Below, piece by piece: positions 2,088-22,034 of a stretch of DNA of 39,244 nt. The position numbers and the translations under genes are program-made. The DNA is from a virus: the UHGV virus genome UHGV-0144129; one strand, 5' to 3'. The notes below the pieces were generated by a model. The model did not search any database. It saw only the letters and a list, made by a program, of their open reading frames with translations, and was not told the DNA's origin. How positions within the stretch are numbered: the stretch's first letter is position 1; each line of letters begins with the position of its first letter.

Positions 2088-3602
2088 GTGTATTTGATAT
2101 CGTATGTGGCAACAAAAAATGGAGTTACAATCTTGAAAGTAAGCGAGTTATCTAGCCAAATTGGCCGACTTTACGGCTTAAACAACATCAACATAATTAT
2201 GGGCCGAAACGGTGCGGGAAAAAGTCGTTTCCTTCGTGATATCGAACAAACAATCAGCCAGAACAAGCAGCAATTTTATGTCCGGTATGTAAGTCCAGAG
2301 CGAGCAGGATCGTTCAAGCGTGATGGCACCGTCCTCACAAATATGAGCGACAACCCCGAATGGCTGAGGCACACTCGGGCAGTTAATCAGGCAAGCAACT
2401 TCAAAGCTGCATCGGCTATGCTATTTCGCGAGGCCGAGACGCTTTACTTACGTCGACTTGCCAATACTCCGGAAATTCGAACTGATCTAACGCGAAACTT
2501 TCAGACAGACCGATTAAGTAAAATTAATCAGCTTCTCACTAACATTTCGCTCGAGATGGGTAATGTCGATTATGAGTTTCGATCACTTGTAGATGGTCAG
2601 ATTATTGATCCGGCCCAAATCAGTAGCGGTGAATCGGAAGCGGTTGCATTAGCCGCGGAAATCATCTATTTCTTCGACACAATAGATCCGGAGAAATTCA
2701 ACGTACTCCTCCTCGATGAGCCTGATGTACATCTGCACCCCGACCTCCAAGCTAGACTGGGCAAGCTGATAATCAGTATGCTCGACGAATTTAGAACACA
2801 CGCGAACAGTATTGCCATATGCTTATCCACCCATAGTTCCCCGCTCGTCTGTTCTCTTGCCGCCTCCCCATATGTATCAATCGGCACGAAGAGCTTTGCA
2901 GTGAATGAAATCTCATTGATACCGGCCAGCGATGAACTTCGAAAGATTGCACCATTCTTCGGGCACCCCCTATCGCTTTCTCTTAGCGAAGACGCTGCAT
3001 TAATTTTGGAAGGAGAGGACGACGAACGAGTCTGGCAACAAGCGGCCAGAACATCACAGGGTCGAATAAAAATCTTTCCCGTACTAGCAGGTAGCGTAGA
3101 TCAACAGAGTCAACTTGAGGATTTTTGCGTAGACCTCCTTAGTACACTCTATGACAATCCAATCGCCTTTTCCCTTCGTGATGGCGATGGTGTAATCAAC
3201 GAGTCGCTTGAACATCGCCTACCTCTTAAACGCTATCGCTTACGATGCTACGCTATCGAAAATGTTCTTTTGACTGATTCATGCCTTGCAGTAATGAATG
3301 TTACATGGGTGGAATTTGTAGACGCAGCCAAAAAATGGGTTGAGGATAATCAAACACACTCCGACATAGCGTTGATTGCAAAACTAATGGAATCGAACGA
3401 CCGATTGCGTCACAAGAAGATCAAGAAAATCCGCCAACTCGTCTGTGCTATTGTTGAGTGTAAAAAACCTTGGGAGGTAGTAGTTGGACAAGCAATCGGG
3501 GCATTGACCAGAGAAGACCTTGAAAACTCGAATATGTTGATCGATTTTCTTGGAGGAGAGATGGTCAGCGACGTCATCTTCAGGGACGCAATAAACCCAT
3601 GA
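2088..3602 (+). CDS. OLD-family-like ABC ATPase with Toprim-like nuclease domain (GajA / AriAB-like), putative anti-phage defence protein
   Basis: Walker A GRNGAGKS, ABC signature SSGESEAVALAAEI, Walker B VLLLDEPDVHLHP, H-loop LSTHS. C-terminal half has a Toprim-type glutamate (LILEGEDDE) and a DxD (LRDGDGV) about 60 aa later. Start uncertain: GTG at 2088 or TTG at 2133 preceded by GGAG. Confidence 0.55.
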   Translation: MYLISYVATKNGVTILKVSELSSQIGRLYGLNNINIIMGRNGAGKSRFLRDIEQTISQNKQQFYVRYVSPERAGSFKRDGTVLTNMSDNPEWLRHTRAVNQASNFKAASAMLFREAETLYLRRLANTPEIRTDLTRNFQTDRLSKINQLLTNISLEMGNVDYEFRSLVDGQIIDPAQISSGESEAVALAAEIIYFFDTIDPEKFNVLLLDEPDVHLHPDLQARLGKLIISMLDEFRTHANSIAICLSTHSSPLVCSLAASPYVSIGTKSFAVNEISLIPASDELRKIAPFFGHPLSLSLSEDAALILEGEDDERVWQQAARTSQGRIKIFPVLAGSVDQQSQLEDFCVDLLSTLYDNPIAFSLRDGDGVINESLEHRLPLKRYRLRCYAIENVLLTDSCLAVMNVTWVEFVDAAKKWVEDNQTHSDIALIAKLMESNDRLRHKKIKKIRQLVCAIVECKKPWEVVVGQAIGALTREDLENSNMLIDFLGGEMVSDVIFRDAINP

Positions 3603-3617
3603 GAATGACCTGATACT

Positions 3618-4013
3618 ATGACCACGATTGATCCGCCCTCATGGTATCAGTATTTATTTTATAACCCGCCTCTCAATACACCAAGAGATTGCGGTAAAGT
3701 GGAGCAGCATGATTACCAGCTTTATCTGGCGATAAATGATATTGAGCATACGAAAACGAAAGCAATGTCATCTAAGACCAATAGTATCTGCGAGCAGTTC
3801 CATAAAACGATACTGAACGAGTTTTATCAGGTGACGTTCCGCAAAAAGTTATATGATGATCTTGAAGCATTACAATCGGTTCTTGATGAATGGCGGGTTC
3901 ACTATAATAATGAGCGAACCCATCAGGGAAAAATGTGCAGTGGCCGAACGCCGATGGAAACGTTACTTGATGGAAAGCACATCTGGGATGAGAAAAACTT
4001 AAGCCAGATGTAA
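3618..4013 (+). pseudogene. C-terminal remnant of a DDE (rve-type) IS transposase
   Basis: KTNSICEQFHKTILNEFY ... YNNERTHQGKMCSGRTPMETL resembles the C-terminal end of an integrase-core domain (IS481/IS3-like). No N-terminal HTH or DDE core upstream. No inverted repeats recognised. Confidence 0.4.
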
Positions 4014-4100
4014 TCTGACAGATACCTTTATAAATAGCCGGTAATTGTCAGATCAGGTCTGATCTAATACAACTTAACTGTGTTATGAGCAATACTGAGG

Positions 4101-4877
4101 ATGGATATGGAACCAGAGAAATTTGCTGAAACTGCAATAGGATTTACCAAAAGCCCTCTTGGTATCATTGCACTCTTTATTGTTCTCGTTTATGGATTTG
4201 CCTCTTTCGTCGTTGGCTTTGGTAATGGCTTATCAGAGCATATAGCTCCCCTTATTTATTTCATGGTTTTCTTTCCTGTCATTGTGTTTCTTGGCTTTCT
4301 CTGGCTTGTTGCGAAACATCATAATAAGCTTTACGGGCCGTCAGATTTCAAAGATGAAAATAATTTTTTAAGAGCGCAAATAGCTACAGCAGCATCATTG
4401 ACCGCCGCCACAGCAAAACAGCCTGAAAATAGTGCAGGGGTCACTGAAAGCCAACTGCGAAAAATCGTCAACGTTGTATCCAATGCAAAACGGCAGAGTA
4501 AGCATGAAAAATGGCGAAATCGTATTTTATGGGTGGATGATCGACCAGAAAATAATGTTTACGAAAGACAGGCATTTGAGGCACAGGGAATAGAGTTCGC
4601 TTTAGCTCTTTCAACTGACGAAGCCTTAGAATTGTTAAAAACAAATAAGTTTGCAGCTATTATTTCGGATATGGATCGCAAAGAAGGGGCGCAAGAAGGT
4701 TATGTCTTACTAGAAAGATTACGCGCAATGGGAGACAAAACTCCTTTTATGATCTATGCGTCCTCAGATCTACCAGAGCACAAGAGAATGGCGAGAGAAA
4801 GAGGTGCAATTGGCTCCACTAATCGAGCAGAAGAACTCTTTCAAATTGTCATGGGTGCGATTACCAATGGCTCATAA
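4101..4877 (+). CDS. two-TM membrane protein with C-terminal CheY-like receiver (REC-like) domain
   Basis: Two hydrophobic helices at the N-terminus. C-terminus reads beta1 ILWVDD, beta3 AAIISDMDRKEG (Asp at acceptor position), beta4 FMIYASS, then a Lys-containing segment. AT-rich codon usage. Confidence 0.45.
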   Translation: MDMEPEKFAETAIGFTKSPLGIIALFIVLVYGFASFVVGFGNGLSEHIAPLIYFMVFFPVIVFLGFLWLVAKHHNKLYGPSDFKDENNFLRAQIATAASLTAATAKQPENSAGVTESQLRKIVNVVSNAKRQSKHEKWRNRILWVDDRPENNVYERQAFEAQGIEFALALSTDEALELLKTNKFAAIISDMDRKEGAQEGYVLLERLRAMGDKTPFMIYASSDLPEHKRMARERGAIGSTNRAEELFQIVMGAITNGS

Positions 4878-7401: not shown

Positions 7402-10053
7402 TTATTTTGATTCCAATAGTTCGAGTCGCTCTTCAATACGATCGCATCGGCGGCGCTGATATGCAGCCTCAAGCCAAGCGCACTGGTCAGGCCGTATGCC
7501 CCATGAACTACCCGCTTTTTTAACCAGCCTCTGTTCTCCGGTGTCATATTCGACGGTGACCAACTCACCAGACGCATCGGTAATCTCTTTAGTCGCGATT
7601 ACCGGCTCAAAAATATCGTCCCACTCGTCATAGCAAAGAAGGCCAAATCTGGTTCCATCAATTCCGTGCGCCAGGAATACATCTCTTACCTGCTGAGCCA
7701 TGACGCCAAAATGCCATCTGGCACCATCGCCCTTCATGGATATAGCGTCGAGCCATCGATACGCCACAACAGAAATATCGCCCCAGGCATCAAGAATGCT
7801 GTCTCTATCAGAAGAAAGCATTTCACTTAAATCTGATATTGCCTCGGGATTGGTTTTCAGCGTGGCATCTGATGAAACGGTTGGGGCATTTGCAAAGTAG
7901 GCGTCTTTAATACGAAACGATGCCTGACCAAAATTATAGGTATTGTCAGCAAACGGGCGAAGACCTGTATTATAAAACCGCCAGCGTATGGTTCCTCCCA
8001 ATGCTGTCGGGTCGCTGTTGCATGCAATATCCACCGTGGTGGCAGACCTAAACACAGAAGAACTACCGCCCAATACCAAGCTATTTGCGCTAGCTGTAGC
8101 CTGCTGGTCAAGGACCAATATTTTCTGAGAGTTTGTAGTTGCACCGGCATATGATGATGCAGTGATGCGGTTTAATTGGTTTGTATCAGGATCTGCGTTT
8201 TGCTGAATGGTTAAGTTAGATGCCCACTGTGCCGGTCGCTGGCGCACAAATACAAAGTCACCAGAAGGATTAGTTGCAACCAAATAACTAATGCCACTAT
8301 CAGATGAATAATAGTTGACTATAAAAGTCTGATTATTCGCATTCAGTATTTCAACATATGTGCTGGAAGGGATTGCCACGCCAGATATATCAGCAATGCT
8401 GACAGTCCCTGTGTAAAAATTAAATGCCTTCTGACTCATCTCCTGCATATAGCGAAGAATTTCAGTCATGTTAGTGAACAACGTACCATCTACAGGGTTA
8501 ACAATCCCCTTCGCACTACGGGGATATACCCCAATGCTCGCGTGATCGATATCAAATCCGCGGTAAAGCCTGGATGCAGGTGTAAAATCGATAGCATCTT
8601 TATCAGTGGAGAAATCTTCGAAAATAACCAAACCTGAATTGTAAGGTTCAGAGCCAGTTCTTTCCTGATGAATGTAAAGTGAATAAATGGATTTTCCATC
8701 CTGAGAAACACAAACGCCTTCATTTTCTATGCGAGTGACGTTCAATCCTGCGGCTTTCATTAAATCCATCATGGCCTGAGGATGAAGCATTGATTCAGTT
8801 CGCTTTGTACCGTCAGGGTTAAAAACTTTGCTGCCCTGATATTCGTTATATCCTGCGCTTCCTGCCCCATCAGCTATGAAGCCGCCATAGCCGCAGACAA
8901 AGTAGTTATCACCTACCGCAATACCCTGACGCTTGTTGAAATAAGGCGCATAAGGTGAGGTGCTTTTAGTTACATACCCAACATCATGTAACGGCAGCGT
9001 TATAGTTGACAGGCGATTGAAACCACTGTCGAACACTGCAAGTACAGTTCTTGTGATTTTCTGTCCTACTTCTGGCGCATTCTGCTCAACGAGCCATATA
9101 CCTCTTCTGTAGCTGAACTGGTTGAATAATCCAACATCATGGTTTTGTACAAGAGGCAGATTGCTTCCGTATAATGCCCCCTCCATATTAAATTCACGCA
9201 GTATTCCGTTTGTGTGACCAACAAACATTTTTTTTGGGCCATAGTCTGACGTAACCACGATTCCTTCAGCAGCGAAGCCTGGGCCGCCAGCCTGAACATA
9301 GAAATAACCTTGATAAATACCAGATATGTTAAATACTGCGACGACATTATTCGTCTGTTTAGGCTCAAATGGATAAGTGATGTATATCAAATCTTCGCTA
9401 ACGCAGAATCCTTGAGGATACATATAAGTTGCTGACGGGTTAGCAGCCATAATCGCATCATATTCAGGAAAAAGAAGCGGCATCGTAGCTACAATCTTTC
9501 TTTGGTGATTTGTAAAAATATCGTTTTTAGCGCTGTTAGGTGTAGGCGTTACACCTCCAGTAAAAAGATCATCAACATAACCTTTATTGACAGCATCGTT
9601 TCTGTCAGTGGCATTTGCTAGATTTGATATCTTATTATTTTTTGCATCATAATAGTTAGCCAGAATGCTTGGTTTTATAAGTGCTAACCTCATCCATGAA
9701 AAACACTTTTGAATAAGCATTGTCAGTTTATCGAACGCGTCTTCATGTACCTCAGCGAAGAACTTACCCTGATTACGCAAATCAGTATCCTGCGTAACCG
9801 GGAGCTCTCGTGATATAGAAATATGATAACCGTTAGCCAACGCCTTCGACAGAATTACATTACCGCCATTATATCCTCCAGCATTGGTTACTGTGTAGTC
9901 AGTATCCAGAACCAATTCTGTTACGTTCCCGTTCAGGTCAGACACCTGAACAACCAGGTCGGATTTTTTGAAAATACGGAAGGTATACGGAAATGATGTC
10001 GTAGCTCCGTTACCAGTGTATTCGTTGTGGTCAACTTCGGTTGAGACCGTCAT
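7402..10053 (-). CDS. tail fibre / tailspike with T7 gp17-like N-terminal anchor and C-terminal intramolecular chaperone (S74-type) domain
   Basis: N-terminus (YTGNGATTSFPYTFRIF...LDTDYTV) follows the T7 gp17 tail-attachment pattern. C-terminus (WHFGVMAQQVRDVF...GIDGTRFGLL) matches the auto-cleaving chaperone domain of endosialidases and L-shaped fibres. Position is after the internal virion genes, as in T7. Confidence 0.7.
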   Translation of the reverse strand: MTVSTEVDHNEYTGNGATTSFPYTFRIFKKSDLVVQVSDLNGNVTELVLDTDYTVTNAGGYNGGNVILSKALANGYHISISRELPVTQDTDLRNQGKFFAEVHEDAFDKLTMLIQKCFSWMRLALIKPSILANYYDAKNNKISNLANATDRNDAVNKGYVDDLFTGGVTPTPNSAKNDIFTNHQRKIVATMPLLFPEYDAIMAANPSATYMYPQGFCVSEDLIYITYPFEPKQTNNVVAVFNISGIYQGYFYVQAGGPGFAAEGIVVTSDYGPKKMFVGHTNGILREFNMEGALYGSNLPLVQNHDVGLFNQFSYRRGIWLVEQNAPEVGQKITRTVLAVFDSGFNRLSTITLPLHDVGYVTKSTSPYAPYFNKRQGIAVGDNYFVCGYGGFIADGAGSAGYNEYQGSKVFNPDGTKRTESMLHPQAMMDLMKAAGLNVTRIENEGVCVSQDGKSIYSLYIHQERTGSEPYNSGLVIFEDFSTDKDAIDFTPASRLYRGFDIDHASIGVYPRSAKGIVNPVDGTLFTNMTEILRYMQEMSQKAFNFYTGTVSIADISGVAIPSSTYVEILNANNQTFIVNYYSSDSGISYLVATNPSGDFVFVRQRPAQWASNLTIQQNADPDTNQLNRITASSYAGATTNSQKILVLDQQATASANSLVLGGSSSVFRSATTVDIACNSDPTALGGTIRWRFYNTGLRPFADNTYNFGQASFRIKDAYFANAPTVSSDATLKTNPEAISDLSEMLSSDRDSILDAWGDISVVAYRWLDAISMKGDGARWHFGVMAQQVRDVFLAHGIDGTRFGLLCYDEWDDIFEPVIATKEITDASGELVTVEYDTGEQRLVKKAGSSWGIRPDQCAWLEAAYQRRRCDRIEERLELLESK

Positions 10054-10528: not shown

Positions 10529-11257
10529 CTATCGTTTCGCTTTGTGCTCATCCCAGCACGTTTTGCACCATGCCATTAAGCCGTCCGCATTTTGATTATT
10601 AGGGTAAAAGCTGGTTCGTTTTCTGCGGACATTACAAATTGGGCACCACTTCATATGGCGTGTATTCTTTGGGCCATCGAGACACCTTGCACACCATTTA
10701 GTCAATCCATCTGGATTTTTTGACGATTTCCTGAATTTTTCATATGGAAGGTTTATTCTGCATCGCAAGCACTGCTTGCTACCACTTGAAACTCTGTTAG
10801 CTGATTCTTCTTTTGGCGGCGATACAGAAGGTATTCTTGCTGGCTCTGATATTGCCTGAGGTGCTTTTTTAGATGACTGAGACGATATGTCATCACCAGG
10901 GAATCTTCCATGATATGCCGGACGCGTTGACACTCCAGGTGGAATCTCAGCTGTAAACGGCTTTGGCTGAATCAGTTGCCTCTCTTTTGCTAACTCCTGC
11001 TGTTTATAATATGTCTGGATTACCGCACTATCATAAGCAGGAGGTGCGGAAATATTAGGCGCATTACCTCCAGTTTTTTGAAACTGAGTAGAGGTGTGTT
11101 CTATCACCTGTGTACGATTAATCGTTATCTCCCCATCTTCGGTCTTTATCGTTTTGTTATGATTAACGACCGTACGATCAGAGATCTTAGTCTTGTTCTG
11201 GTTGATAACGTAAATAATCACCGCAACCACACCAACAACTATCCAGAAAACTTCCAT
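10529..11257 (-). CDS. membrane-anchored protein with tandem zinc-ribbon motifs
   Basis: SD GAGG before ATG. N-terminal TM helix, Pro/Ser-rich linker, then two repeats of a P/ADGLxxWCxxC unit with extra CxxC pairs. Transcribed immediately before the tail fibre gene. Confidence 0.5.
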   Translation of the reverse strand: MEVFWIVVGVVAVIIYVINQNKTKISDRTVVNHNKTIKTEDGEITINRTQVIEHTSTQFQKTGGNAPNISAPPAYDSAVIQTYYKQQELAKERQLIQPKPFTAEIPPGVSTRPAYHGRFPGDDISSQSSKKAPQAISEPARIPSVSPPKEESANRVSSGSKQCLRCRINLPYEKFRKSSKNPDGLTKWCARCLDGPKNTRHMKWCPICNVRRKRTSFYPNNQNADGLMAWCKTCWDEHKAKR

Positions 11258-11293: not shown

Positions 11294-11656
11294 ATCTTGC
11301 TTTCAGGTGATCAAGCGTTAAACGTAATCAACCAAATACGGTTGATTTTAATATTTCTTCGCGTTTATCATTACCTTTGCGGTAAATTTACATTGCACTC
11401 CTCTTGTGCCATAGTAATCGGGCACTGGCAAAATCCAGTGCCGGGATTGGTCTCCCGGATTACTAAGTGGCGCATACCACGCCAGACGTGGTTTTTTTAT
11501 GCGTATAGCACAGTCATGCCAGAATTATGGTGGGCTGAATGGGGGTCCGAAAGGACGCCGGTACCACTTAGGCCGGTAAGACCAACTCCGTTCAGTTCAC
11601 CACCATCTGATTGGTCTCAGCGGTGGTGATGTAATTCGCTAAGTGGAGACGCCATC

Positions 11657-12313
11657 ATGAACGCTCAACTCATCCCCGTATTCAACGGCACTATATCTAA
11701 CGAAACAGCCCTACTTTGTAATGCCCGCGATCTGCACGCTTTTTTAGGTGTTAAAAAGGTGTTTGCAGCATGGATTACAAATCGCATATCAGAATACGAA
11801 TTCATTGAAAATCAAGACTATATTTTGCTTTCCAATTTGGGAAAGCAAACATCTGGTAGAGGCGGCCACAACCGCAAAGAGTACCACCTCACCCTTGATA
11901 CAGCCAAAGAGCTGGCGATGGTCGAGCGTAACGAAAAAGGTCGCCAGGTGCGACGCTACTTCATTGAATGCGAGAAACGTTTAAGACAACAAGAAACAAA
12001 AGTGGAGAAGGTCTTGTCAGGCTTCATGCCCGCCATTATGGAGGCGATCAAGCTGGAAGACAAAAAAGAATACAGCGCCCCACTGAAGCCCGGCTACCGT
12101 AGCCTGATTCATTCGCCGTCTGGTGTTCTCGGCCTGACGGAGAACTCACTGCTGATGAATTTGCTGAACCAGTTACAGGAAGACGGGCACGATGTATCGG
12201 GCGCGGCGGCGGAGCTGACCACCATGTTCTGCTACATCGTTGGTGTGAGCAAATGCCTGCGTGATATCCAGACGCACGCGGAGTACATCAACGACAAGGC
12301 AGGATTCTTCTGA
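11657..12313 (+). CDS. antirepressor-like protein (second Ant; Bro-N/ORF6N-like N-domain plus shared Ant C-domain)
   Basis: N-terminal region ([22 protein letters not shown]...) resembles phage antirepressor / Bro N-terminal domains. The C-terminal 80 aa are near-identical to the C-terminus of the Ant at 13323-14267. Confidence 0.55.
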
Positions 12314-12542: not shown

Positions 12543-13178
12543 ATGCCACAACAACTGCTGAATCCGGCAAAGGTAACTGAGGTTTTCGCTCATCTGAACG
12601 AAACTCCAGACAACCGCGCCCTGTATTCAGAGTTAGTGAACGGCAACGATGTCACATCTGATGTCAAAGGCGTTTCTCTGGCTCCTGGATACCGCGTTGT
12701 CCGTGTAGACGATCGTAAGAAAGGCGAGATTCCACAGGCGCACTTTGAACTGTCATTGATAAATGACCTCACCGAAGAGGTAGTGTATTACAATCGTGTC
12801 ATTATCCAGCCTGACAGCTATCTTAACTGCCGTCCTGTCACGCAGATATTGGTATGGAGAACCCAGAAGCCTAAGCATCGTGCTGTGCTTCATGATTTCG
12901 CCGGCATCATCTTCATGAACTACCTCTTGGAACGGTACGATATCATCGTGTCAGATCGCAACCAGACTCATGAAGGCATGTCGTTCTGGCAGGCTCGCAT
13001 GTATGACGCACTGGAACTTGGCCTCCACCTCTATGGTTACGACATGATGACATGCGAGCTGATAGAGATGAATAACGAGGAAGAGCTTGAGAAAGGTGAA
13101 ACCTGGTTGTGGGGTGATGCGGAAAACTTCCAAAACAGATTGGCCATAATTTCAAAGCATAAGCTGCCAATAAAATAG
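12543..13178 (+). CDS. hypothetical protein (cargo between the inverted repeats)
   Basis: 211 aa ORF with normal codon usage and its own terminator. No motif recognised. Confidence 0.5.
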   Translation: MPQQLLNPAKVTEVFAHLNETPDNRALYSELVNGNDVTSDVKGVSLAPGYRVVRVDDRKKGEIPQAHFELSLINDLTEEVVYYNRVIIQPDSYLNCRPVTQILVWRTQKPKHRAVLHDFAGIIFMNYLLERYDIIVSDRNQTHEGMSFWQARMYDALELGLHLYGYDMMTCELIEMNNEEELEKGETWLWGDAENFQNRLAIISKHKLPIK

Positions 13179-13299: not shown

Positions 13300-13555
13300 C
13301 ACATCCCTGTGCCGCCGTTCTGTCAGAAGAACCCTGCCTTGTCGTTGATGTACTCCGCGTGGGTCTGGATATCACGCAGGCACTTGCTCACACCGACGAT
13401 GTAGCAGAACATGGTGGTCAGCTCCGCCGCCGCGCCCGATACATCGTGCCCGTCGTCCTGTAACTGGTTAAGCAGATTCATCAGCAGTGAGTTCTCCGTC
13501 AGGCCGAGAACACCCGACGGCGAATGAATCAGACTGCGGTAGCCGGGCTTCAGCG
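13300..13555. repeat. right arm of the ~255 bp inverted repeat (3' end of ant plus 3' UTR)
   Basis: See the left arm at 12083-12337. Confidence 0.7.
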
Positions 13556-14267
13556 GATAACCATAACATTTTGTCTGTGTTTTAATTGCCTCACGAAGCG
13601 CATCTAACATCTTGACTGCCACTTCATCATTCTCTGATGCAGATCCAGCAGGGAGATGCTCCCCTTCAAGCGGAACCCGAGCAACAAGAGACAACGCTTC
13701 GGCGAATTGATCTTCATCAATTTCTTTGTACGAACAGCCAAAATGAGATTTCAGTGACGACCACATGGTGATCATCGCCTTAGCCTGTTTTTCTTTTGGC
13801 AGAGACTGACCGCGACTCATGACGAGTTGTTTAATGGCTTCCTGCTGTTCAGTGGTTATTTTACCCGGCAACGCCTTTTTAGCTTTGCGTGGGTTAACCA
13901 CATGGCCTTTAGTCCAGTACTCGTAGAGCACATCGTCACACTCTTCCTGATACTGGATTACCTTGTCGCGGATTTCAGGGCGGACTTTGTTAGGGCTGAT
14001 GGTTTGCAACCAGCCAGCAAGTTTGCGAAGTGCCAAACAAATAATCTCACGGCGCTGTTCATCCCCAGGAAGCTGCATTGTGATTTTCACAATGCAGGTT
14101 TTAAACCGCTGCTTCATTTTCGTAAACTGTGAAGCCCAATCCATACCCATGCCTTCAACGATAGGTTTCATTGGGGTGTACGGTTCTCCGTTGTGATTGA
14201 CAACATAAAGTTCTGCGCCGTGGAATGGCACGTTGATAGTAGATACCGCTGTTGCTATACTCGTCAT
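13323..14267 (-). CDS. ant: antirepressor Ant (AntA-type N-domain plus shared C-domain)
   Basis: N-terminus (INVPFHGAELYVVNHNGEPYTPMKPIVEGMGMDW) is AntA-like. Directly downstream of the arc-like gene, as in P22 immI. Confidence 0.7.
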   Translation of the reverse strand: MTSIATAVSTINVPFHGAELYVVNHNGEPYTPMKPIVEGMGMDWASQFTKMKQRFKTCIVKITMQLPGDEQRREIICLALRKLAGWLQTISPNKVRPEIRDKVIQYQEECDDVLYEYWTKGHVVNPRKAKKALPGKITTEQQEAIKQLVMSRGQSLPKEKQAKAMITMWSSLKSHFGCSYKEIDEDQFAEALSLVARVPLEGEHLPAGSASENDEVAVKMLDALREAIKTQTKCYGYPLKPGYRSLIHSPSGVLGLTENSLLMNLLNQLQDDGHDVSGAAAELTTMFCYIVGVSKCLRDIQTHAEYINDKAGFF

Positions 14268-14339
14268 GTCGTTAATTCCTATACGTAGTTTTACGATACT
14301 GAAGCCCTGACGGTCTGGCCACCGTTGGGCTTCGCTGTT

Positions 14340-14507
14340 TTATGCCACGCTATTCTTCTCACCAGTGAGTCCATACACTTTCCTCAGCTGATAGATAATC
14401 TCTGTATTGAACTTTCGGCATTCTTTTTCGCCATTTCTTTCAATAGCTAACTTCACATCGTCCGGAAAACGAACTCGTCGTTGACACATCTCTTTTGCTT
14501 TTTGCAT
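14340..14507 (-). CDS. Arc-like ribbon-helix-helix repressor
   Basis: Start is the internal ATG (MQKAKEM...) with SD AAGGAG 7 nt upstream. The RRVRFPDDVKLAIERNGEK...NTEIIYQLRK region has an RHH beta-strand plus two helices. Sits between the mnt-like gene and ant. Confidence 0.55.
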   Translation of the reverse strand: MQKAKEMCQRRVRFPDDVKLAIERNGEKECRKFNTEIIYQLRKVYGLTGEKNSVA

Positions 14508-14521
14508 TTCATATCTCCTTA

Positions 14522-14536
14522 GCCCCACCGTGGGGC
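14522..14536. promoter_or_regulatory. operator-like palindrome GCCCCAC-C-GTGGGGC at the ant promoter
   Basis: Perfect 7-1-7 palindrome just upstream of the arc SD. Its CCACNGTGG core recalls the P22 mnt operator (from memory). Confidence 0.4.
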
Positions 14537-14542
14537 AAAACA

Positions 14543-14571
14543 ATTGTCACACCGTGCGTCATTGATGTCAA
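14543..14571 (-). promoter_or_regulatory. candidate sigma70 promoter for arc-ant (P_ant-like)
   Basis: Minus strand: perfect -35 TTGACA (complement of 14566-14571), 17-bp spacer, -10 GACAAT (complement of 14543-14548). The palindrome above lies at the predicted start site. Confidence 0.4.
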
Positions 14572-14627
14572 GCACACGGTGAGGCATACTTCAATCATTG
14601 CAAGTAACTCAATATTTGGTGAAGAAC

Positions 14628-15059
14628 ATGAGCAGAGAAGATCCACAACTAAGGATCAGACTTCCCGTTGAAGTAAAAGAAAAAATAGAAATTTCTGCAA
14701 AAGCCAATAAGCGCTCAATGAACGCTGAAATAGTACAACGTCTTGACACCAGCTTTCTGAAAGATATTCATGAAGATGACGTAATTTCTGCTTATGAAGC
14801 AAAAATTATTGCAAACAATGCACGGCATGAAATATCAAATATTATTTTCAAAAGAACTTTTAATGAAATCAATAAGAAAATAACACTTGGACATACAAGT
14901 TTTTATATAAACCTTAATGACCTTGAACTGGAATCACTTGCAGATAATGATTACCAGATCATCTTTGAAAAAACATTTAATAAGCTCAATGAACTAGGTT
15001 ACATCATCTGTGAAAACTCATGGGATGCAGATGGTTTTGGAATTGAAATACCTGAATAG
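14628..15059 (+). CDS. mnt: Mnt-like ribbon-helix-helix repressor with a long AT-rich C-terminal extension
   Basis: MSREDPQLRIRLPVEVKEKIEISAKANKRSMNAEIVQRLDTSF closely parallels the N-terminus of P22 Mnt (sequence recalled from memory). Divergent from arc-ant. About 60 extra C-terminal residues compared with P22 Mnt. Confidence 0.6.
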   Translation: MSREDPQLRIRLPVEVKEKIEISAKANKRSMNAEIVQRLDTSFLKDIHEDDVISAYEAKIIANNARHEISNIIFKRTFNEINKKITLGHTSFYINLNDLELESLADNDYQIIFEKTFNKLNELGYIICENSWDADGFGIEIPE

Positions 15060-15149
15060 GAAGAACAAAAGGCGTGTACATATTACACGTCTTTAATACA
15101 ATTGAAAAACGCCACATTACTGATGTATGTTACAACAAGGAGCGATATT

Positions 15150-15713
15150 TTGAAAACCATATCTATATTAAAGGTTGCATTAGGCGTCGCTATTATTTTG
15201 ACTCTCTCAATATTGTTTTATTTTTACCACAAAAAAACTGCTATTGCTCTTGATGGTCACGCGGCAAACTCATTTTTCTCAGAGTACATAGTGCCGCTAT
15301 CAGGAAGCGGTATAACAAATAAATATACTGACTATGACATCAAATATGGAATTGATGATGGGGAGACTATTGCATTACATGTAATCATTAAAAACCTAAT
15401 GACAGTAAATAAAAATACAGACTTCAACGATAAAAATACAATACATCACAACAACAGCAAAACATTAATTTCTTATAGTAGCAACATCTATACGGATAAA
15501 TACCTAAAATACATCTCAGAAGATACAATAAAAGCAACCAGCGAAAAGTTAAAAAACATATATTGTGCATCCGGCAGTTTTCACAAATTATCGCCGCAAG
15601 AGCGTTTATTCTACGAAGCAAGAAAACAACGTAAGTCAATAATATTACATTATTATGCTGATTCAGGGGAGTCACTCATATTTAATATTGGGGTTTCCCC
15701 TGAATCATGCTAA
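15150..15713 (+). CDS. AT-rich membrane-anchored moron protein (candidate superinfection-exclusion or defence factor)
   Basis: Best start is TTG at 15150 with SD AAGGAG 7 nt upstream (the ORF track starts it at 15102). N-terminal TM helix (ISILKVALGVAIILTLSILFYF), then an N/K/Y/I-rich domain. Opposite strand to the flanking virion genes. Confidence 0.45.
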   Translation: MKTISILKVALGVAIILTLSILFYFYHKKTAIALDGHAANSFFSEYIVPLSGSGITNKYTDYDIKYGIDDGETIALHVIIKNLMTVNKNTDFNDKNTIHHNNSKTLISYSSNIYTDKYLKYISEDTIKATSEKLKNIYCASGSFHKLSPQERLFYEARKQRKSIILHYYADSGESLIFNIGVSPESC

Positions 15714-15724
15714 AGGCGTTTAAC

Positions 15725-18700
15725 TCACCGCATCACCGGATCCACCTGGTTTATTAGTGGCGCAATCCAGAACAGGTTATTGCCTGGTATCAGGGTTCGG
15801 ACATTATGCACAATACGATCACCGGCATCACCATTCAACACTCCTGCGGTCACATCAATGATGCTATCCGCAAGACCAAATGACGGTCCGAATAGAGATC
15901 CTACGAATCCACGACTGGCATACCTAGACTGTGTGCCAGTGCCAAATAAAGCCCCCAGCCCAACAGCACCACCAGTAGCCTTTTCAGCCATGTTGTTATA
16001 TTCCATCAATGGCCCAAGAATACCGGATCTATCTATACCCTCAAGCACCAGCTTCTCTGGTGACCAGTCAACATTTTTCCCTTTCGATGCTTCTTTTAGC
16101 GCATAGACCAGTGAGCCAAGAGCAATCTGAAATGCAGTGCCATAATAAAATTGCGCAGTTCCTTCCTGTAACCCACCAAGTAGCGCACGGTTGTATGAAG
16201 CCGTTGTGAATGATTTAAACTGAAATATCGTTCGCCCCATTGGAGTACTCGCCCATAAAGGTGTGTCACCAATACCGGGGGTGATGATAGTGTTATTAAC
16301 GTCTTTCAGAACCGCTGACTGGAATACTCCGGCAACGTACTGATCGTCCCATTTATCAAAGTTACCAATGTGCCATCCATCAATTACCTCACCATGTTTC
16401 TCGAACTCACTGCGAATACGCGCAGCCATATTGTCGTTGATACCGAGTTTTGCCATGCGACGTGCAGAAAACGCACCAGACAAAATACCGTCTGACGTGA
16501 GCATTCCGTTCATGGATTTGTTTATGTCATTAAATCGATCCATGAGTGTCAGCTTGCCGAAGGCATCAGTAATTCGCTCCATTCCTGCTTCGACTGCTGT
16601 TGTCCTGGAAGAACTGTCAACAAGATCACCAATTGCACGAGAACGTGAATGTAGTACAGCTTCCAATCCAATCCCCATCTTCAACATCTCTTCTTTGCTG
16701 GCCTTAAATGCCGGTGATTGGGATATCTGAGAAGCATAGCCTTTCATGGTGTTACGGAAACCATTAACCATAACCCCTCTGGCCAAATCTGGAATAGCTG
16801 ATACTGTCATTCCACCGAGTTTGGTCGTGAAGTTCACATCCCGCAGAAAAGCGCCAGCACGAACAAAAAACGAAGACGGATCATCAGGCATACCATATGT
16901 ACCAACAAGACGATCGCGTAATGCTGTTATGTCTCTGAGATCATTTGCTCTTGATTTTGAAAGTCTGGACTGTTCTTTCCGTAATTCCTTTTCGTACTTT
17001 CGCATTAATGAATCGAGTTTACCCTGAGGAACAACTTCACCATTGCTCTCATAACGTGCTTTCAGATTTGCCACACTTTCGTCATATTTCGCCTTTATTT
17101 TTTTAGGCACTTCCCGTAACAGACTGTCATATTCGTCCTCAATTAATTGCAGACGCTCAGTCATAGTTCGTTTGCCAAATGTTCTCGTCAGCTCAATTTC
17201 TGCTGCCGCTTCACGGATATGACGTTGCAGCACGTAATTCACATCACTTTCAAGATAATCCCTGATAAGACTATCAGGAACATTTAATGTTCTTTCTTTC
17301 GTACTACCTGCGGCTTTTACAGAAAATACGCTGACAAAATCCTGTGGAACCTTAGCACCAGTAATTTTATTAATTACGATATCCGCTGCAATTTCAGCAT
17401 CCTCAGGATCCAGTGTTTTATTTCCTCTCGACCACCAGTCAACCAAAATACGTCGAAATTTATCGCGTTCACTGATTATTTTTCCAACTTTATATATGCG
17501 TGGGAAATAGCTTGCCTGGCCTAATGCTTTCAGTTCTTCATCTGGCGGCAATAAACCAAGCTTTTGCATTTCAACTTTCACCCGATTTAATACAGTTCGC
17601 ATCGCCTGCGCCGTTTCCTGAACAACAGGATTAGCATGCACATCACCGCTTCGCATAGCATTCCCAACCTGCTGACGAAATGAATCAAAACTCATGTCAC
17701 CACCATCAGCTTTATACTTTGCGTATGCCTGTTTATTTCCGACAACAACAGCAGCTTCTTCACGCTGCCATCCACGTGTACGGGTTTCTACAGCTACCGG
17801 TGTTTCAATCCCCCTTTCATTTCCTTTAAGGGTGAAATTATTTTCGGCTAACTCCAGCGTTGTTTTTCGCACCGTCTTGGACGGAGACTCCATTAACCTT
17901 GTCAAAGGAGTAAGATAGCTCCCTGCTTTCCATGCAGCCTTTCCAACCCACCCACCGGAAACAGGGGTTAAATCATCCAGAGTCGCTGTATCAATTTTCA
18001 TAGCACCAACACTACCACCATCGGAAAGCGAAGCGGCAGCCCTGTCAGTCGCTGATGTAATGCTCATATTATCAAGAGCATCAGCAACCTCACGTGTGGC
18101 TGCAGCCCGGACGGATGGCGAAAGCGCAACACCAGCACTGGCAAACACGCCGCTCATCATCGCACCCGCTGCAACGTGAGCGGCACTTTCACCCCATGAG
18201 CGTGTTATTTGCTGATTATTCAGTACAACCTCGCTTAATGCTGTACCGGCAGCACCAATCGCAATCTGTGAGCCAATACGCGCCAGTGCCCCTCCTTGAG
18301 CACCGGGAATAAACATTGACGCAACAGTAACCGGATCCATTCCCGCAGCAATACTGGCAAGGGTTCCAACTACGCCAGCATCAGACAATAAACGTCTGTC
18401 TTCATTTTCATCATCTATCTGCTGCTTAATCCACGCCGTTTCCTCTGGCGATCGGGAATCTGCAAATTTCGCCCCCCAGTATTCATAACCGTGCAACTCA
18501 TTTTTATCAGCATATGGGTTATAACCCTCGACCGGTTCAAACTGTCTGGCTGGGCGGAAAAAACCAGACAGAATATTGTTCTGTCGCATTGCAGCCCCCC
18601 ATACGGAAGGCTCAGGTGGCAATGGCTCAGGATTAGCCCCTTCCGGAAGGGCAACATCAAACCCAGTTTGTTCCGGCAAAACATTACCTGACGGGATCAG

Positions 18701-18739
18701 TCCGTTATTAAGATCTTCAGCTTGTGCATAAACTGGCAT
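15725..18739 (-). CDS. internal virion / ejection protein (T7 gp15/gp16-like by position)
   Basis: 1004 aa ORF, the last of the large genes between tail tubular B and the tail fibre. Assigned by synteny and size. Confidence 0.5.
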   Translation of the reverse strand: MPVYAQAEDLNNGLIPSGNVLPEQTGFDVALPEGANPEPLPPEPSVWGAAMRQNNILSGFFRPARQFEPVEGYNPYADKNELHGYEYWGAKFADSRSPEETAWIKQQIDDENEDRRLLSDAGVVGTLASIAAGMDPVTVASMFIPGAQGGALARIGSQIAIGAAGTALSEVVLNNQQITRSWGESAAHVAAGAMMSGVFASAGVALSPSVRAAATREVADALDNMSITSATDRAAASLSDGGSVGAMKIDTATLDDLTPVSGGWVGKAAWKAGSYLTPLTRLMESPSKTVRKTTLELAENNFTLKGNERGIETPVAVETRTRGWQREEAAVVVGNKQAYAKYKADGGDMSFDSFRQQVGNAMRSGDVHANPVVQETAQAMRTVLNRVKVEMQKLGLLPPDEELKALGQASYFPRIYKVGKIISERDKFRRILVDWWSRGNKTLDPEDAEIAADIVINKITGAKVPQDFVSVFSVKAAGSTKERTLNVPDSLIRDYLESDVNYVLQRHIREAAAEIELTRTFGKRTMTERLQLIEDEYDSLLREVPKKIKAKYDESVANLKARYESNGEVVPQGKLDSLMRKYEKELRKEQSRLSKSRANDLRDITALRDRLVGTYGMPDDPSSFFVRAGAFLRDVNFTTKLGGMTVSAIPDLARGVMVNGFRNTMKGYASQISQSPAFKASKEEMLKMGIGLEAVLHSRSRAIGDLVDSSSRTTAVEAGMERITDAFGKLTLMDRFNDINKSMNGMLTSDGILSGAFSARRMAKLGINDNMAARIRSEFEKHGEVIDGWHIGNFDKWDDQYVAGVFQSAVLKDVNNTIITPGIGDTPLWASTPMGRTIFQFKSFTTASYNRALLGGLQEGTAQFYYGTAFQIALGSLVYALKEASKGKNVDWSPEKLVLEGIDRSGILGPLMEYNNMAEKATGGAVGLGALFGTGTQSRYASRGFVGSLFGPSFGLADSIIDVTAGVLNGDAGDRIVHNVRTLIPGNNLFWIAPLINQVDPVMR

Positions 18740-21456: not shown

Positions 21457-22034
21457 CAGTAACCTCCTATTTTGAATCGGGAGTCAGAATTCATAAAGCC
21501 TGAGTTAGATAACATTGGCGTTCCACCACCAGATGCACTTCCTTTAGAGAATGGGCTCCACGTTCCTCCGCTCATCTGGTATGCACCGTATGCTTTTAGT
21601 GGTGCCGTTAACAAAGTGCTGGTCATCGATGATTTAGCAGCCGACTGAGCAGCAGCCCCCTGTGCCTGAGCATTCATTCCCTGAACCTGATACCCATATG
21701 CCTCACGCTGAGCATTATTCACTGTCGTTAACGCATCAAGAGTGCCGAACTGAGCATTATCCGCAAAAACGTCAAGAGCTGTTCCGCTACTTAATTCCGC
21801 ACCGGTAGCCCCCATAGTAGCCGCCGCAGTGCCTGAGCGTTGACGCATTTCACGACGACGCTGATCCGCTTCAATATTCCCACGATTGATTGAATCCTGT
21901 GCCTGAGCTTCAGCAATTTCAGTATTCCGATCTGCTATGGCTGACTGGTATTTTGCCTGCTTGCTCTGGCTGTACATTGACGCTGCTGTGGATGCCACTG
22001 TGACGGCAACCAAAGCGATGGCTGGGTTACACAT
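21456..22034 (-). CDS. internal virion protein (gp14-like by position)
   Basis: 192 aa, Ala/Gln/Gly-rich with an N-terminal hydrophobic segment. Synteny only. Confidence 0.4.
   Translation of the reverse strand: MCNPAIALVAVTVASTAASMYSQSKQAKYQSAIADRNTEIAEAQAQDSINRGNIEADQRRREMRQRSGTAAATMGATGAELSSGTALDVFADNAQFGTLDALTTVNNAQREAYGYQVQGMNAQAQGAAAQSAAKSSMTSTLLTAPLKAYGAYQMSGGTWSPFSKGSASGGGTPMLSNSGFMNSDSRFKIGGY

Follow-up and report, generated by a model that had tools for sequence, protein, structure and literature searches.

A predicted P22 immI-type switch with a long Mnt-like repressor and three related putative operators in a phiV10-like Escherichia coli prophage

The window, i.e., the whole 39,244-nt stretch of the virus genome UHGV-0144129 analysed here, carries at 13323-15059 a module made of an ant gene (minus strand), a sar-like RNA (plus), an Arc-like gene (minus), a 120-bp control region and a Mnt-like gene (plus). 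Judged from its sequence, this module is a complete copy of the P22 "immunity I" (immI) type of switch, carried by a phiV10-like E. coli prophage. The segment 14340-15059 holds only the arc-like and mnt-like genes, ant and sar lying to its left (13323-14336). The GC content drops to 0.27-0.35 across 14700-15700, versus about 0.46-0.50 in the flanking DNA. In window coordinates, the features are:

13323-14267, minus strand: ant, antirepressor of 314 aa, second gene of the arc-ant operon (Pfam P22_AR_N, 9.6e-45)
14233-14261, plus strand: P_sar-like promoter TTGATA-17-TATACT, inside the start of ant on the opposite strand (promoter scan 10/12, TG extension)
14269-14336, plus strand: sar-like antisense RNA of about 68 nt (full-length match to the Rfam RF00262 sar model)
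14340-14507, minus strand: arc-like gene, 55 aa, first gene of the ant operon, with AGGAG upstream
14522-14536, no strand: putative operator C, GCCCCACcGTGGGGC, at or just after the predicted P_ant start, conserved in homologous loci
14543-14571, minus strand: P_ant-like promoter TTGACA-17-GACAAT, -35 at 14571-14566 (promoter scan 10/12, extended -10 TG)
14546-14560, no strand: putative operator B, GACGCACGGTGTGAC in the arc sense, in the P_ant spacer, where P22 has O_arc
14562-14590, plus strand: predicted P_mnt, TTGATG-17-CATACT, weak (8/12, read by eye; the scan threshold is 9/12)
14571-14585, no strand: putative operator A, GCCTCACCGTGTGCT in the arc sense, in the spacer of the predicted P_mnt
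14628-15059, plus strand: mnt-like gene, 143 aa (Pfam Arc PF03869, 1.1e-14, residues 2-46)
14628-14879, plus strand: mnt-like residues 1-84, ribbon-helix-helix and long helix, corresponding to the whole of P22 Mnt
14880-15059, plus strand: mnt-like residues 85-143 and stop codon, AT-rich, extra beta-alpha-beta-beta unit
15150-15713, plus strand: membrane-anchored protein of 187 aa at the position of P22 sieA (PHROG 8033, "unknown function")

Each part of P22 immI has a counterpart in the window, in identical order and orientation. An earlier note made from the sequence had recognized the divergent Mnt-like (plus) and Arc-like (minus) genes followed by ant as a P22 immI arrangement, and this assignment holds for Mnt, Ant, sar and an O_mnt-like operator alike. 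The alignments that it proposed were run: BLASTP matches the Mnt-like protein to P22 Mnt at 3e-14 (32% identity over 88 aa) and the Arc-like protein to P22 Arc at 4e-05 (33% over 40 aa), the latter with weak statistics. Ant matches P22 Ant at 3e-41 (40% identity over 217 aa) and belongs to PHROG 524/245, "anti-repressor Ant". For the four proteins tested, NCBIfam gave no useful family.

The sar-like RNA is complementary to the ribosome-binding site and start codon of ant and ends in a hairpin followed by a T-run, with a terminator-like site at 14312-14331. Its score of 45.2 bits exceeds the RF00262 gathering score of 43 by a narrow margin; P22 sar itself, used as a control, scores 97.8 bits and an Enterobacter locus (L006) 59.4 bits, and the threshold is reached in 1 of the 15 other long-Mnt loci scanned. 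The predicted fold has an energy of -24.7 kcal/mol (z = -2.9). The arc-ant junction of the window can be aligned with that of P22, and in this alignment the P_sar-like -10 (complement of AGTATA on the ant-sense strand) also matches P22.

The Arc-like protein resembles Arc in size, position and spacing, with Q9, R13, P15, N34, E36 and I37 aligned with Arc residues. It matches PHROG 228, "Arc-like repressor" (3.4e-5), and hhalign relates it to the Mnt-like N-terminus with 84% probability (E 7e-6). Its family profile retrieves Arc from the PDB at an E-value of 0.02-0.06 only, and no match was obtained in Pfam. A single-sequence search of the PDB returned only artefacts (a TAL-effector repeat and designed proteins), and the AF2 monomer model (pLDDT 55.6) is too poor for use. 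Weak sequence evidence thus points to a ribbon-helix-helix protein.

For the Mnt-like protein, the best PDB match is P22 Mnt (1mnt, 3.5e-7), and PHROG 795, the P22 Mnt family, covers residues 1-84 (3.2e-19). The AF2 model predicts helices at 14-26, 31-44 and 55-87, and both the P22 Mnt PHROG profile and BLASTP align through residue 84-86. The extension announced by the earlier note, about 60 residues beyond P22 Mnt, is borne out: residues 1-84 alone match P22 Mnt, and the remaining 57-60 residues or so (~88-143) form a small alpha/beta unit in the model. No recognizable relatives of this unit were found; the C-terminus alone gave no BLASTP alignment with the P22 Mnt C-terminus, and no significant sequence or fold match to P22 Mnt, TraM or AmrZ. 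A terminator-like hairpin is predicted by the terminator scan at 15073-15089, directly 3' of the mnt-like stop codon.

This long Mnt has many relatives: it is one member of a large family found in Enterobacterales prophages (142-151 aa, PHROG 1388, "unknown function") with 262 database matches, and the commonest close relative is an intact 143/153-aa form (P0001, 67 members). Neither the long Mnt family nor the module of phage TL-2011b is described in any paper returned by a literature search. All 16 long-Mnt loci also have the 55-aa Arc-like gene and an antirepressor, the latter exchangeable, and they lie inside tail-gene clusters of unrelated prophages; the module is present at 97% identity or more (97-99.8%) in 36 of 5426 complete E. 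coli genomes. A complete immI thus travels as a cassette into late operons of unrelated phages, among them phiV10-like podoviruses, siphovirus-like prophages and a lambda-like Yersinia pestis prophage. The neighbouring 187-aa membrane protein is missing beside the cassette in Enterobacter and Yersinia loci, and is therefore a neighbour in the moron rather than a conserved part. Two proposals about this protein were rejected, namely that it is a SieA homologue (similarity E 0.14) and that it forms a toxin-antitoxin-like pair with the mnt-like gene, the two not being linked in other genomes.

The carrier is a temperate podovirus of the phiV10/epsilon15 kind. It shares 96-98% identity with phiV10-like Uetakevirus phages, of which TL-2011b is the closest: 84% of 15720-39244 matches TL-2011b at 98.2% identity, and 49-66% of it matches phiV10-like Uetakevirus phages at 97-98%. 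The window also encodes homologues of replication protein P and Ea22, which mark a temperate lambdoid-type early region. The main-repressor region lies beyond its right end, the P homologue being the final gene. The earlier note had placed the module in a T7-like late operon. This part of its interpretation does not stand, given the Uetakevirus affiliation; in Pfam, the sole link to T7 is a sub-threshold match to the T7 tail-fibre N-terminal domain (21.6 bits against a cut-off of 25.2). Nor is the insertion point unusual, as it had also suggested, since immI occupies the same site in P22, flanked by gene 16 (injection) and gene 9 (tailspike) in the order 16, sieA, mnt, arc, ant, 9. The corresponding order in the window is a 1004-aa internal virion protein (15725-18739), the moron, and the tail fibre (7402-10053). 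In P22-like phages this site is the described, hyper-variable "ant moron", an independently expressed block bounded by the tailspike gene and the last of the injection-protein genes, in which mnt, arc and ant are frequent and a membrane protein is present in some cases (PMC2629481); it is known from epsilon34, ST64T, HK620, CUS-3 and others (Villafane et al. 2008, PMC2629481). At the same spot, phiV10 has a different small antirepressor moron. The immI-type module and the extended Mnt are thus what survives of the initial interpretation.

In the control region, a perfect TTGACA and a palindrome at the predicted ant start had been noticed beforehand, and both fall into place: the promoter is TTGACA-17-GACAAT and the palindrome begins 6 nt past its -10, compared with 7 nt for P22 O_mnt. 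This operator C is 15 bp long, with two 7-bp arms (GCCCCAC and GTGGGGC) around one central base (c). A second TTGACA, on the plus strand at 14481-14486 inside the arc-like gene, belongs to no predicted promoter. The predicted P_mnt stands back to back with P_ant, their -35 hexamers overlapping by 2 bp. In the family consensus its -10 is CATAAT, at a fixed position beside site A; the window -10 (CATACT) is degenerate, as is window operator A relative to its consensus GCCCCACNGTGGGGT.

Across 15 loci (14 homologous ones and the window), spanning Yersinia, Proteus, Morganella, Xenorhabdus and others, a block of roughly 60 bp containing the operators is nearly invariant while its flanks diverge; the P_ant-like promoter and operator B are invariant in this alignment. 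The operator B sequence is exact in 14 of 16 long-Mnt loci, differing at two positions in L015 and at one in L021. Three of the six CACSGTG sites of the 39-kb window fall within 56 bp of the control region, and this clustering, together with the near-invariance of the block, is more than chance would give. A search of the window for further Mnt-type operators returned C, A and one match with three mismatches at 21700, which is within chance expectation. No separate Arc operator (21 bp, with TAGA-type half-sites) was found in the P_ant spacer; operator B is there instead.

A correspondence between protein and DNA was revealed by comparing 26 loci and P22: Mnt residue 9 (R, K or N) tracks base -5 of the half-site (C, A or T). 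The strand triad Q-R-R goes with C at this position in 129 of 130 half-sites, Q-K-R with A in 24 of 24, and H-N-R, in P22, with T in both, a correlation resting on few independent lineages, perhaps 3-5. Since it extends to all three sites, it argues that A, B and C are all Mnt-type operators. No such covariation with the sites is seen for residue 11 of the Arc-like protein, which is K or R. Knight and Sauer reportedly found that P22 Mnt contacts DNA through Arg2, His6, Asn8 and Arg10. The equivalent residues of the Mnt-like protein are R, Q, R and R, so that two of the four are kept, with His6 and Asn8 replaced. What is new here, as read from sequence comparison, is the set of three conserved putative operators with a CACNGTG core and this covariation between Mnt residue 9 and base -5.

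The preferred reading, to which we give a probability of about 0.78, is that this moron, located in the late region of a phiV10-like prophage, is a working antirepressor switch of the immI type. During lysogeny, the weak P_mnt would supply the long Mnt-like repressor, which would bind all three of the related operators of 15 bp: C at the start of P_ant, B in the spacer of that promoter and A in the spacer of P_mnt. Such binding would shut the strong divergent P_ant, so that neither the Arc-like protein nor Ant would be made, and would also limit the synthesis of the Mnt-like protein itself. The C-terminal part of Mnt (long helix and alpha/beta unit), we infer, most likely joins DNA-binding dimers into higher oligomers, with several operators filled together. 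Firing of P_ant, upon infection or loss of Mnt, would produce the Arc-like protein and Ant; the former would then turn P_ant down again, and pairing of the sar-like RNA with the ant ribosome-binding site would limit translation. Ant would finally inactivate the main repressor of the phage, encoded outside the window.

Who occupies which site may nevertheless be shared out as in P22, with long Mnt on the A/C-type sites only (half-sites GCC[CT]CAC) and site B (GACGCAC / GTCACAC) serving as the operator of the Arc-like protein. This division of labour is possible, if doubtful. Site B has the position of P22 O_arc, its half-sites carry a purine at -4, A and C a pyrimidine, in most loci with the 55-aa Arc-like gene, and no such difference is seen in those Serratia and Xenorhabdus loci whose small divergent gene is not the Arc-like one, A, B and C all being of one type there. 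However, site B obeys the same residue-9 rule as A and C, Acinetobacter loci have three sites of one type despite a ribbon-helix-helix partner, site C is itself of the B type in L024 and L026, and site B stays the same whether residue 11 of the Arc-like protein is K or R. We also put forward, only tentatively, that the long-Mnt / 55-aa Arc-like pair is a distinct, widely mobile immI subtype in which three features come jointly. One recognition code (R-C, K-A, N-T) would be used at three operators bracketing two back-to-back promoters, the Mnt-like and Arc-like repressors would compete for the same sites, and a previously undescribed C-terminal fold would assemble a multi-operator complex or make it responsive to a signal.

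This last point touches on the function of the extra Mnt unit. P22 Mnt requires its C-terminal domain to form tetramers (PMC3325190), and in other Proteobacteria the same Mnt N-terminus is joined to C-termini of several unrelated kinds (95-201 aa) with the three-site layout kept, a variety that fits a generic role such as oligomerization. These comparative data favour oligomerization for the unit in the window. It is rather unlikely to be instead a sensing or partner-binding domain, from which a signal or a phage or host protein would release the repressor, making an inducible switch rather than a constitutive maintenance repressor. Such a function would nonetheless suit a compact alpha/beta domain that is confidently modelled by AF2, well conserved (G88, F92, L99, L101, T116, L123-G124-Y125 and F137 are invariant), restricted to a single architecture, and added to residues 1-84, which already cover all that P22 Mnt needs. 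Very improbable, finally, is the idea of a decaying remnant, a moron no longer serving lysogeny control. It can invoke the +1 frameshift at mnt-like codon 9 in TL-2011b, otherwise 96.7% identical over the module, the degenerate site A and P_mnt -10 of the window, truncated database entries (P0002 and P0078), and the precedent of several ant morons in P22-like phages whose arc and ant are degraded (Casjens and colleagues, PMC2629481). Yet the window keeps all three ORFs intact, as well as both P_ant and P_sar, the fold of sar, and operators B and C, and both the prevalence of the intact 143/153-aa Mnt among close relatives and the 36 E. coli genomes with the module speak against decay.

As a gene circuit, P22 immI has entered the textbooks, and its Arc and Mnt proteins serve as models of how beta-sheets recognize DNA. 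The form common in enterobacteria departs from P22 twice, in its longer Mnt and in its three related operators, and the residue-to-base covariation provides a directly testable recognition rule. If the tentative joint subtype were true, the circuit would follow a logic unlike that of textbook P22, and the family would provide an operator code for ribbon-helix-helix proteins that is ready-made and can be re-programmed. The practical gain is in annotation: long Mnt is now labelled "hypothetical" or "Arc family DNA-binding protein", P22-type Mnt appears as "partition protein ATPase" in RefSeq phage records, and the Arc-like gene is mostly a "hypothetical protein". The module is also a candidate for the point at which prophage induction and cross-talk among co-resident prophages are controlled in E. 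coli lysogens, STEC strains with TL-2011b-like prophages included.

One of the closest known systems is that of TL-2011b (NC_019445), whose gp40-gp42 region shares 96.7% DNA identity with window 13300-15750 and includes genes annotated "Arc-like repressor" and "anti-repressor Ant". Its mnt-like gene differs by a +1 G frameshift after codon 9, the window copy being intact, and is annotated as a 113-aa hypothetical protein starting from an internal Met; either the gene is dispensable there or the record is in error. With respect to the ant moron of P22-like phages, the window block is of the same kind, but it sits in a Uetakevirus, and the cassette is also found in tail-gene clusters of siphovirus-like and lambda-like prophages. 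Known ribbon-helix-helix regulators with C-terminal oligomerization domains are P22 Mnt, TraM of F-like plasmids and Pseudomonas AmrZ. P22 Mnt has 83 aa and ends after its tetramerization helix, whereas the window protein runs on to 143 aa.

The likeness to P22 immI lies in the homologous Mnt and Ant proteins and, by weak statistics, a probable Arc homologue, in mnt being divergent from arc-ant, in sar running antisense across the arc-ant junction, and in P_ant, which in P22 is TTGACA-17-TATATT, with the same layout and 17-bp spacer. Operator C is by position the counterpart of P22 O_mnt (GGTCCACGGTGGACC), and the core CCACGGTGG is common to both. Their outer bases differ, GGT in P22 and GCC in the window, in step with the contact strand, which reads H, N, R in P22 Mnt and Q, R, R here. 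P22 combines O_mnt with an unrelated O_arc (ATGATAGAAGCACTCTACTAT), whereas the window has three related sites A, B and C, its P_ant spacer holding a third CACNGTG-core site, GACGCACGGTGTGAC, unlike O_arc. The P_mnt and P_ant of P22 overlap fully, whereas the predicted starts in the window lie about 60 bp apart with overlapping -35 hexamers, and the carrier is P22-like there and phiV10-like here. The window module is thus an ordinary immI in kind, set apart by its extra Mnt domain and its three related operators.

The 314-aa protein of the cassette is, on sequence comparison, a P22-type antirepressor (Pfam P22_AR_N 9.6e-45; 40% identity to P22 Ant, BLASTP 3e-41), and the genes and control elements around it are laid out as follows.

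13323–14267, minus strand: ant, 314 aa, P22-type antirepressor (P22_AR_N, BLASTP)
14233–14261, plus: predicted sar promoter, strong, TTGATA-17-TATACT, directly upstream of sar and within the ant start
14269–14336, plus: sar-like RNA (Rfam, 45.2 bits; gathering score 43)
14340–14507, minus: Arc-like gene, 55 aa, AGGAG ribosome-binding site, 72 bp from ant
14522–14536: site C, palindrome GCCCCAC-c-GTGGGGC, starting 6 nt past the P_ant −10
14571–14543, minus (arc–ant strand): predicted promoter P_ant, TTGACA-17-GACAAT with TG extension (promoter scan)
14546–14560: site B, GACGCACGGTGTGAC, in the P_ant spacer, at the position of P22 O_arc (the Arc operator)
14562–14590, plus: predicted promoter P_mnt of the mnt-like gene, TTGATG-17-CATACT, weak (our own reading)
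14571–14585: site A, directly upstream of the P_ant −35
14628–15059, plus: mnt-like gene, 143 aa (Pfam Arc, 1mnt, BLASTP to P22 Mnt), 120 bp from the Arc-like gene
15150–15713, plus: membrane-anchored gene, 187 aa

As controls in the Rfam search, P22's own sar reached 97.8 bits and that of an Enterobacter locus homologous to this one 59.4 bits. The sar-like RNA, which did not appear in the earlier note's list, is supported by its predicted promoter, by a terminator-like 3′ hairpin followed by a T-run and by base-level alignment of the arc–ant junction with that of P22. All four components of the P22 immI switch therefore have counterparts here, Arc by combined sequence and context, and the mnt/arc/ant module recognized earlier is upheld.

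The late operon had been called T7-like, a label which does not hold. Between 13300 and 15750 the window and Escherichia phage TL-2011b share 96.7% identity. In the structural and early regions it is 97–98% identical to phiV10-like phages (genus Uetakevirus), and lambda-type replication and Ea22 genes are present in the early region. The last internal-virion gene (15725–18739) is on one side of the module and the tail-fibre gene (7402–10053) on the other. P22 immI has the equivalent position (gene 16, sieA, orf59a, mnt, arc, sar, ant, gene 9) and on the same strands, mnt and the membrane-protein gene being opposed to the late operon and arc–ant running along with it. This block of P22-like phages was named the “ant moron” by Villafane, Casjens and colleagues, and is the most variable part of their late operon (PMC2629481). 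In phiV10, the same place is taken by another small block, which includes an antirepressor-like gene of Bro-N type. The insertion point, previously thought unusual, is thus typical.

Another antirepressor module, unlike the P22-type one in kind, is seen 1 kb away from it (11422–12313, plus). It consists of isrK (11422–11498, Rfam 67.7 bits), a C4 antisense RNA (11523–11607, Rfam 61.2 bits) and, directly downstream, an AntA-domain antirepressor gene (11657–12313; Pfam AntA 4.2e-26, PHROG 377), as in the phage P1/Gifsy-type arrangement. The prophage therefore has, within a single moron, two antirepressors under different control. The 187-aa protein (N-terminal membrane anchor, GC about 0.31, PHROG 8033 of unknown function) is encoded in the place of the P22 superinfection-exclusion gene sieA, with promoter-like sites of its own at 15075–15131; no similarity to SieA was found (E 0.14). 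Two further moron genes encode a 242-aa protein (10529–11257, minus; PHROG 6762), whose C-terminal matches are zinc-ribbon, endonuclease VII-like or Lar-like, and a 211-aa protein (12543–13178, plus; PHROG 1349). To the left of the lysis genes (2088–4877, plus), a 504-aa AAA_15/AAA_21 ATPase and a 258-aa response-regulator receiver domain protein may be paired as cargo or for defence at the end of the prophage.

The proposed similarity to P22 Mnt is borne out by BLASTP (3e-14 for the Mnt-like protein); for the 55-aa protein and P22 Arc the evidence is weaker, with a BLASTP value of 4e-5 (single pair). The 55-aa protein matches Arc at Q9, R13, P15, N34, E36 and I37, its N-[ST]-E-I motif having the same spacing from P15 as in Arc, with the BLASTP gap falling just after the motif. 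It also matches PHROG 228 “Arc-like repressor” (3.4e-5), and its family profile matches the Mnt-like N-terminus (E 7e-6). A Pfam search of the 55-aa protein gave no match, its family profile reached Arc in the PDB at E 0.02–0.06 only, and its AlphaFold monomer model is poor. Because sequence and context evidence combine, it is treated here as an Arc-type ribbon-helix-helix protein, a working label rather than a proven one.

The 143-aa protein matches Pfam Arc PF03869 over residues 2–46 (1.1e-14), and its nearest solved structure is the P22 Mnt repressor (1mnt, 3.5e-7). The P22 Mnt PHROG profile and BLASTP alignments both run to residue 84–86, so residues 1–84 probably correspond to the whole of P22 Mnt, DNA-binding domain and C-terminal helix included. 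The extension noticed earlier is real, with about 57 residues past 84; it is no local oddity, as this long-Mnt family has 262 database matches (58–69% identity) in Citrobacter, Enterobacter, Salmonella, Klebsiella, Yersinia (Y. pestis included), Proteus, Morganella, Xenorhabdus and others; its members are called nothing more specific than “Arc family DNA-binding protein”, and it constitutes PHROG 1388, to which no function is assigned. Among 30 aligned sequences, the first 13 residues (MSREDPQLRIRLP) are nearly constant, with 11 invariant columns and at least 90% conservation in the other two. The AlphaFold model, built from 30 homologues, has a mean pLDDT of 80.6 (about 90 for the C-terminal half) and predicts helices at residues 14–26, 31–44 and 106–123, a long helix at 55–87, and strands at 91–95 and 136–140. 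The gene is AT-rich throughout the family (GC 0.33–0.44), and most of all in the window, where its C-terminal part has a GC of 0.30.

A repeat of 13 residues, NIIFKRTFNEINK/QIIFEKTFNKLNE, is found within the Mnt-like protein at residues 71–83 and 109–121 (14838–14876 and 14952–14990; BLASTP 1e-4, family hhalign E 4.6e-4 with 33% probability for a short match). The P22 Mnt C-terminal helix (MVFD-TLKDLYKK) can be aligned with the first copy, which hints, suggestively at most, at an origin of the extension in a duplicated tetramerisation helix. The TL-2011b mnt-like gene (L001, NC_019445, 10328–10760) has an extra G after codon 9 (AAGG to AAGGG; window 14652–14655) which disrupts the DNA-binding strand, the RefSeq product being a 113-aa hypothetical protein from an internal Met. 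Either that induced phage has truly lost its maintenance repressor, or the extra G is a sequencing error in a homopolymer. The name “partition protein ATPase” given to mnt in several P22-like RefSeq records (e.g. NC_011802, NC_014900, NC_004348, NC_005841) and in PHROGs 795 and 2685 seems to be an annotation error that has spread between records.

In the control region, the palindrome described earlier at the predicted ant transcription start is indeed there, as site C. P22 P_ant is TTGACA-17-TATATT, and the Mnt operator O_mnt (GGTCCACGGTGGACC) starts 7 nt past its −10; O_mnt and site C have the central CCACGGTGG in common and differ symmetrically in their outer bases. Sites A, B and C have a common CACNGTG core and centres 24 and 25 bp apart; of six CACSGTG sites in the whole 39-kb window, this 56-bp stretch contains three. 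P_mnt, with an 8/12 match below the promoter scan threshold, contains site A in its spacer and shares 2 bp of its −35 with the P_ant −35; in the family, the consensus −10 of this promoter is CATAAT and its position does not vary. At 14571–14590 in the window, this −10 reads CATACT and site A (AGCACACGGTGAGGC, plus strand) has three mismatches to the palindromic consensus. Because of these deviations, Mnt autoregulation or expression in the E. coli version may differ from that of its relatives.

Across 15 loci (14 homologous plus the window), some 60 bp, AAATTATGCCCCACNGTGGGGTTGACnnCAATGACGCACGGTGTGACA, hardly vary between unalignable flanks, with site C lying a variable 4–8 bp past them. The Mnt strand triad was compared with half-site base −5 at all three sites in 26 loci plus P22, a set with few independent lineages (maybe three to five): Q-R-R goes with C (129/130 half-sites), Q-K-R with A (24/24) and H-N-R of P22 with T (2/2). 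Since the triad tracks base −5 at each site, A, B and C are all predicted operators of an Mnt-type protein, this covariation being the strongest argument. The Arc-like triad is of the same kind (Q-R-R in the window, Q-K-R in most relatives), so the Arc-like protein may read the same sites, although its residue 11 does not covary with them. In most long-Mnt loci site B has purines at −4, against pyrimidines in A and C, which would fit a P22-like division of labour over the sites between long Mnt and the Arc-like protein, a less probable reading.

What the sequences show is homology for each part (less firmly for the Arc-like one), together with the layout, how well it is conserved, and the covariation. 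By analogy with P22 (PMC11016777, PMC2629481), Mnt would repress arc–ant in the lysogen, P_ant, once fired, would be damped by Arc, sar RNA would block ant translation and Ant would inactivate the main repressor. Long Mnt would occupy C, B and A together, its C-terminal part supplying the oligomerisation needed for joint filling. This role is proposed because P22 Mnt tetramer formation depends on the C-terminal domain (PMC3325190), and because unrelated C-termini (95–201 aa) accompany the same N-terminus in distant relatives (Acinetobacter, Giesbergeria, Pseudorhodoferax, Serratia, Xenorhabdus), which retain the divergent small gene, the antirepressor and three CACNGTG sites. Alternatively, and less probably, the extra unit may have a sensing role.

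The cassette is found elsewhere too. In an Enterobacter siphovirus-like prophage, long Mnt, about 125 bp, the 55-aa gene and an antirepressor lie between the tail-tube and tape-measure genes, and Y. pestis has the same trio among lambda-like tail genes. The 55-aa partner is present in 16 of 16 long-Mnt loci; the antirepressor that follows is of differing types (among them P22_AR_N, Bro-N and KilA-N-like), and the 187-aa membrane protein, absent beside the cassette in the Enterobacter and Yersinia loci compared, does not belong to it. Every part is of a known kind, the closest phage record already carrying the names “Arc-like repressor” and “anti-repressor Ant”. In the literature searched, no description was found of the family of long Mnt proteins, of a layout with three operators and back-to-back promoters, of the spread of the cassette into unrelated late operons or of the residue-to-base covariation. 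Compared with P22, where the two promoters overlap fully and O_mnt is accompanied by an unrelated O_arc, the window has its predicted promoters back to back and three related sites.
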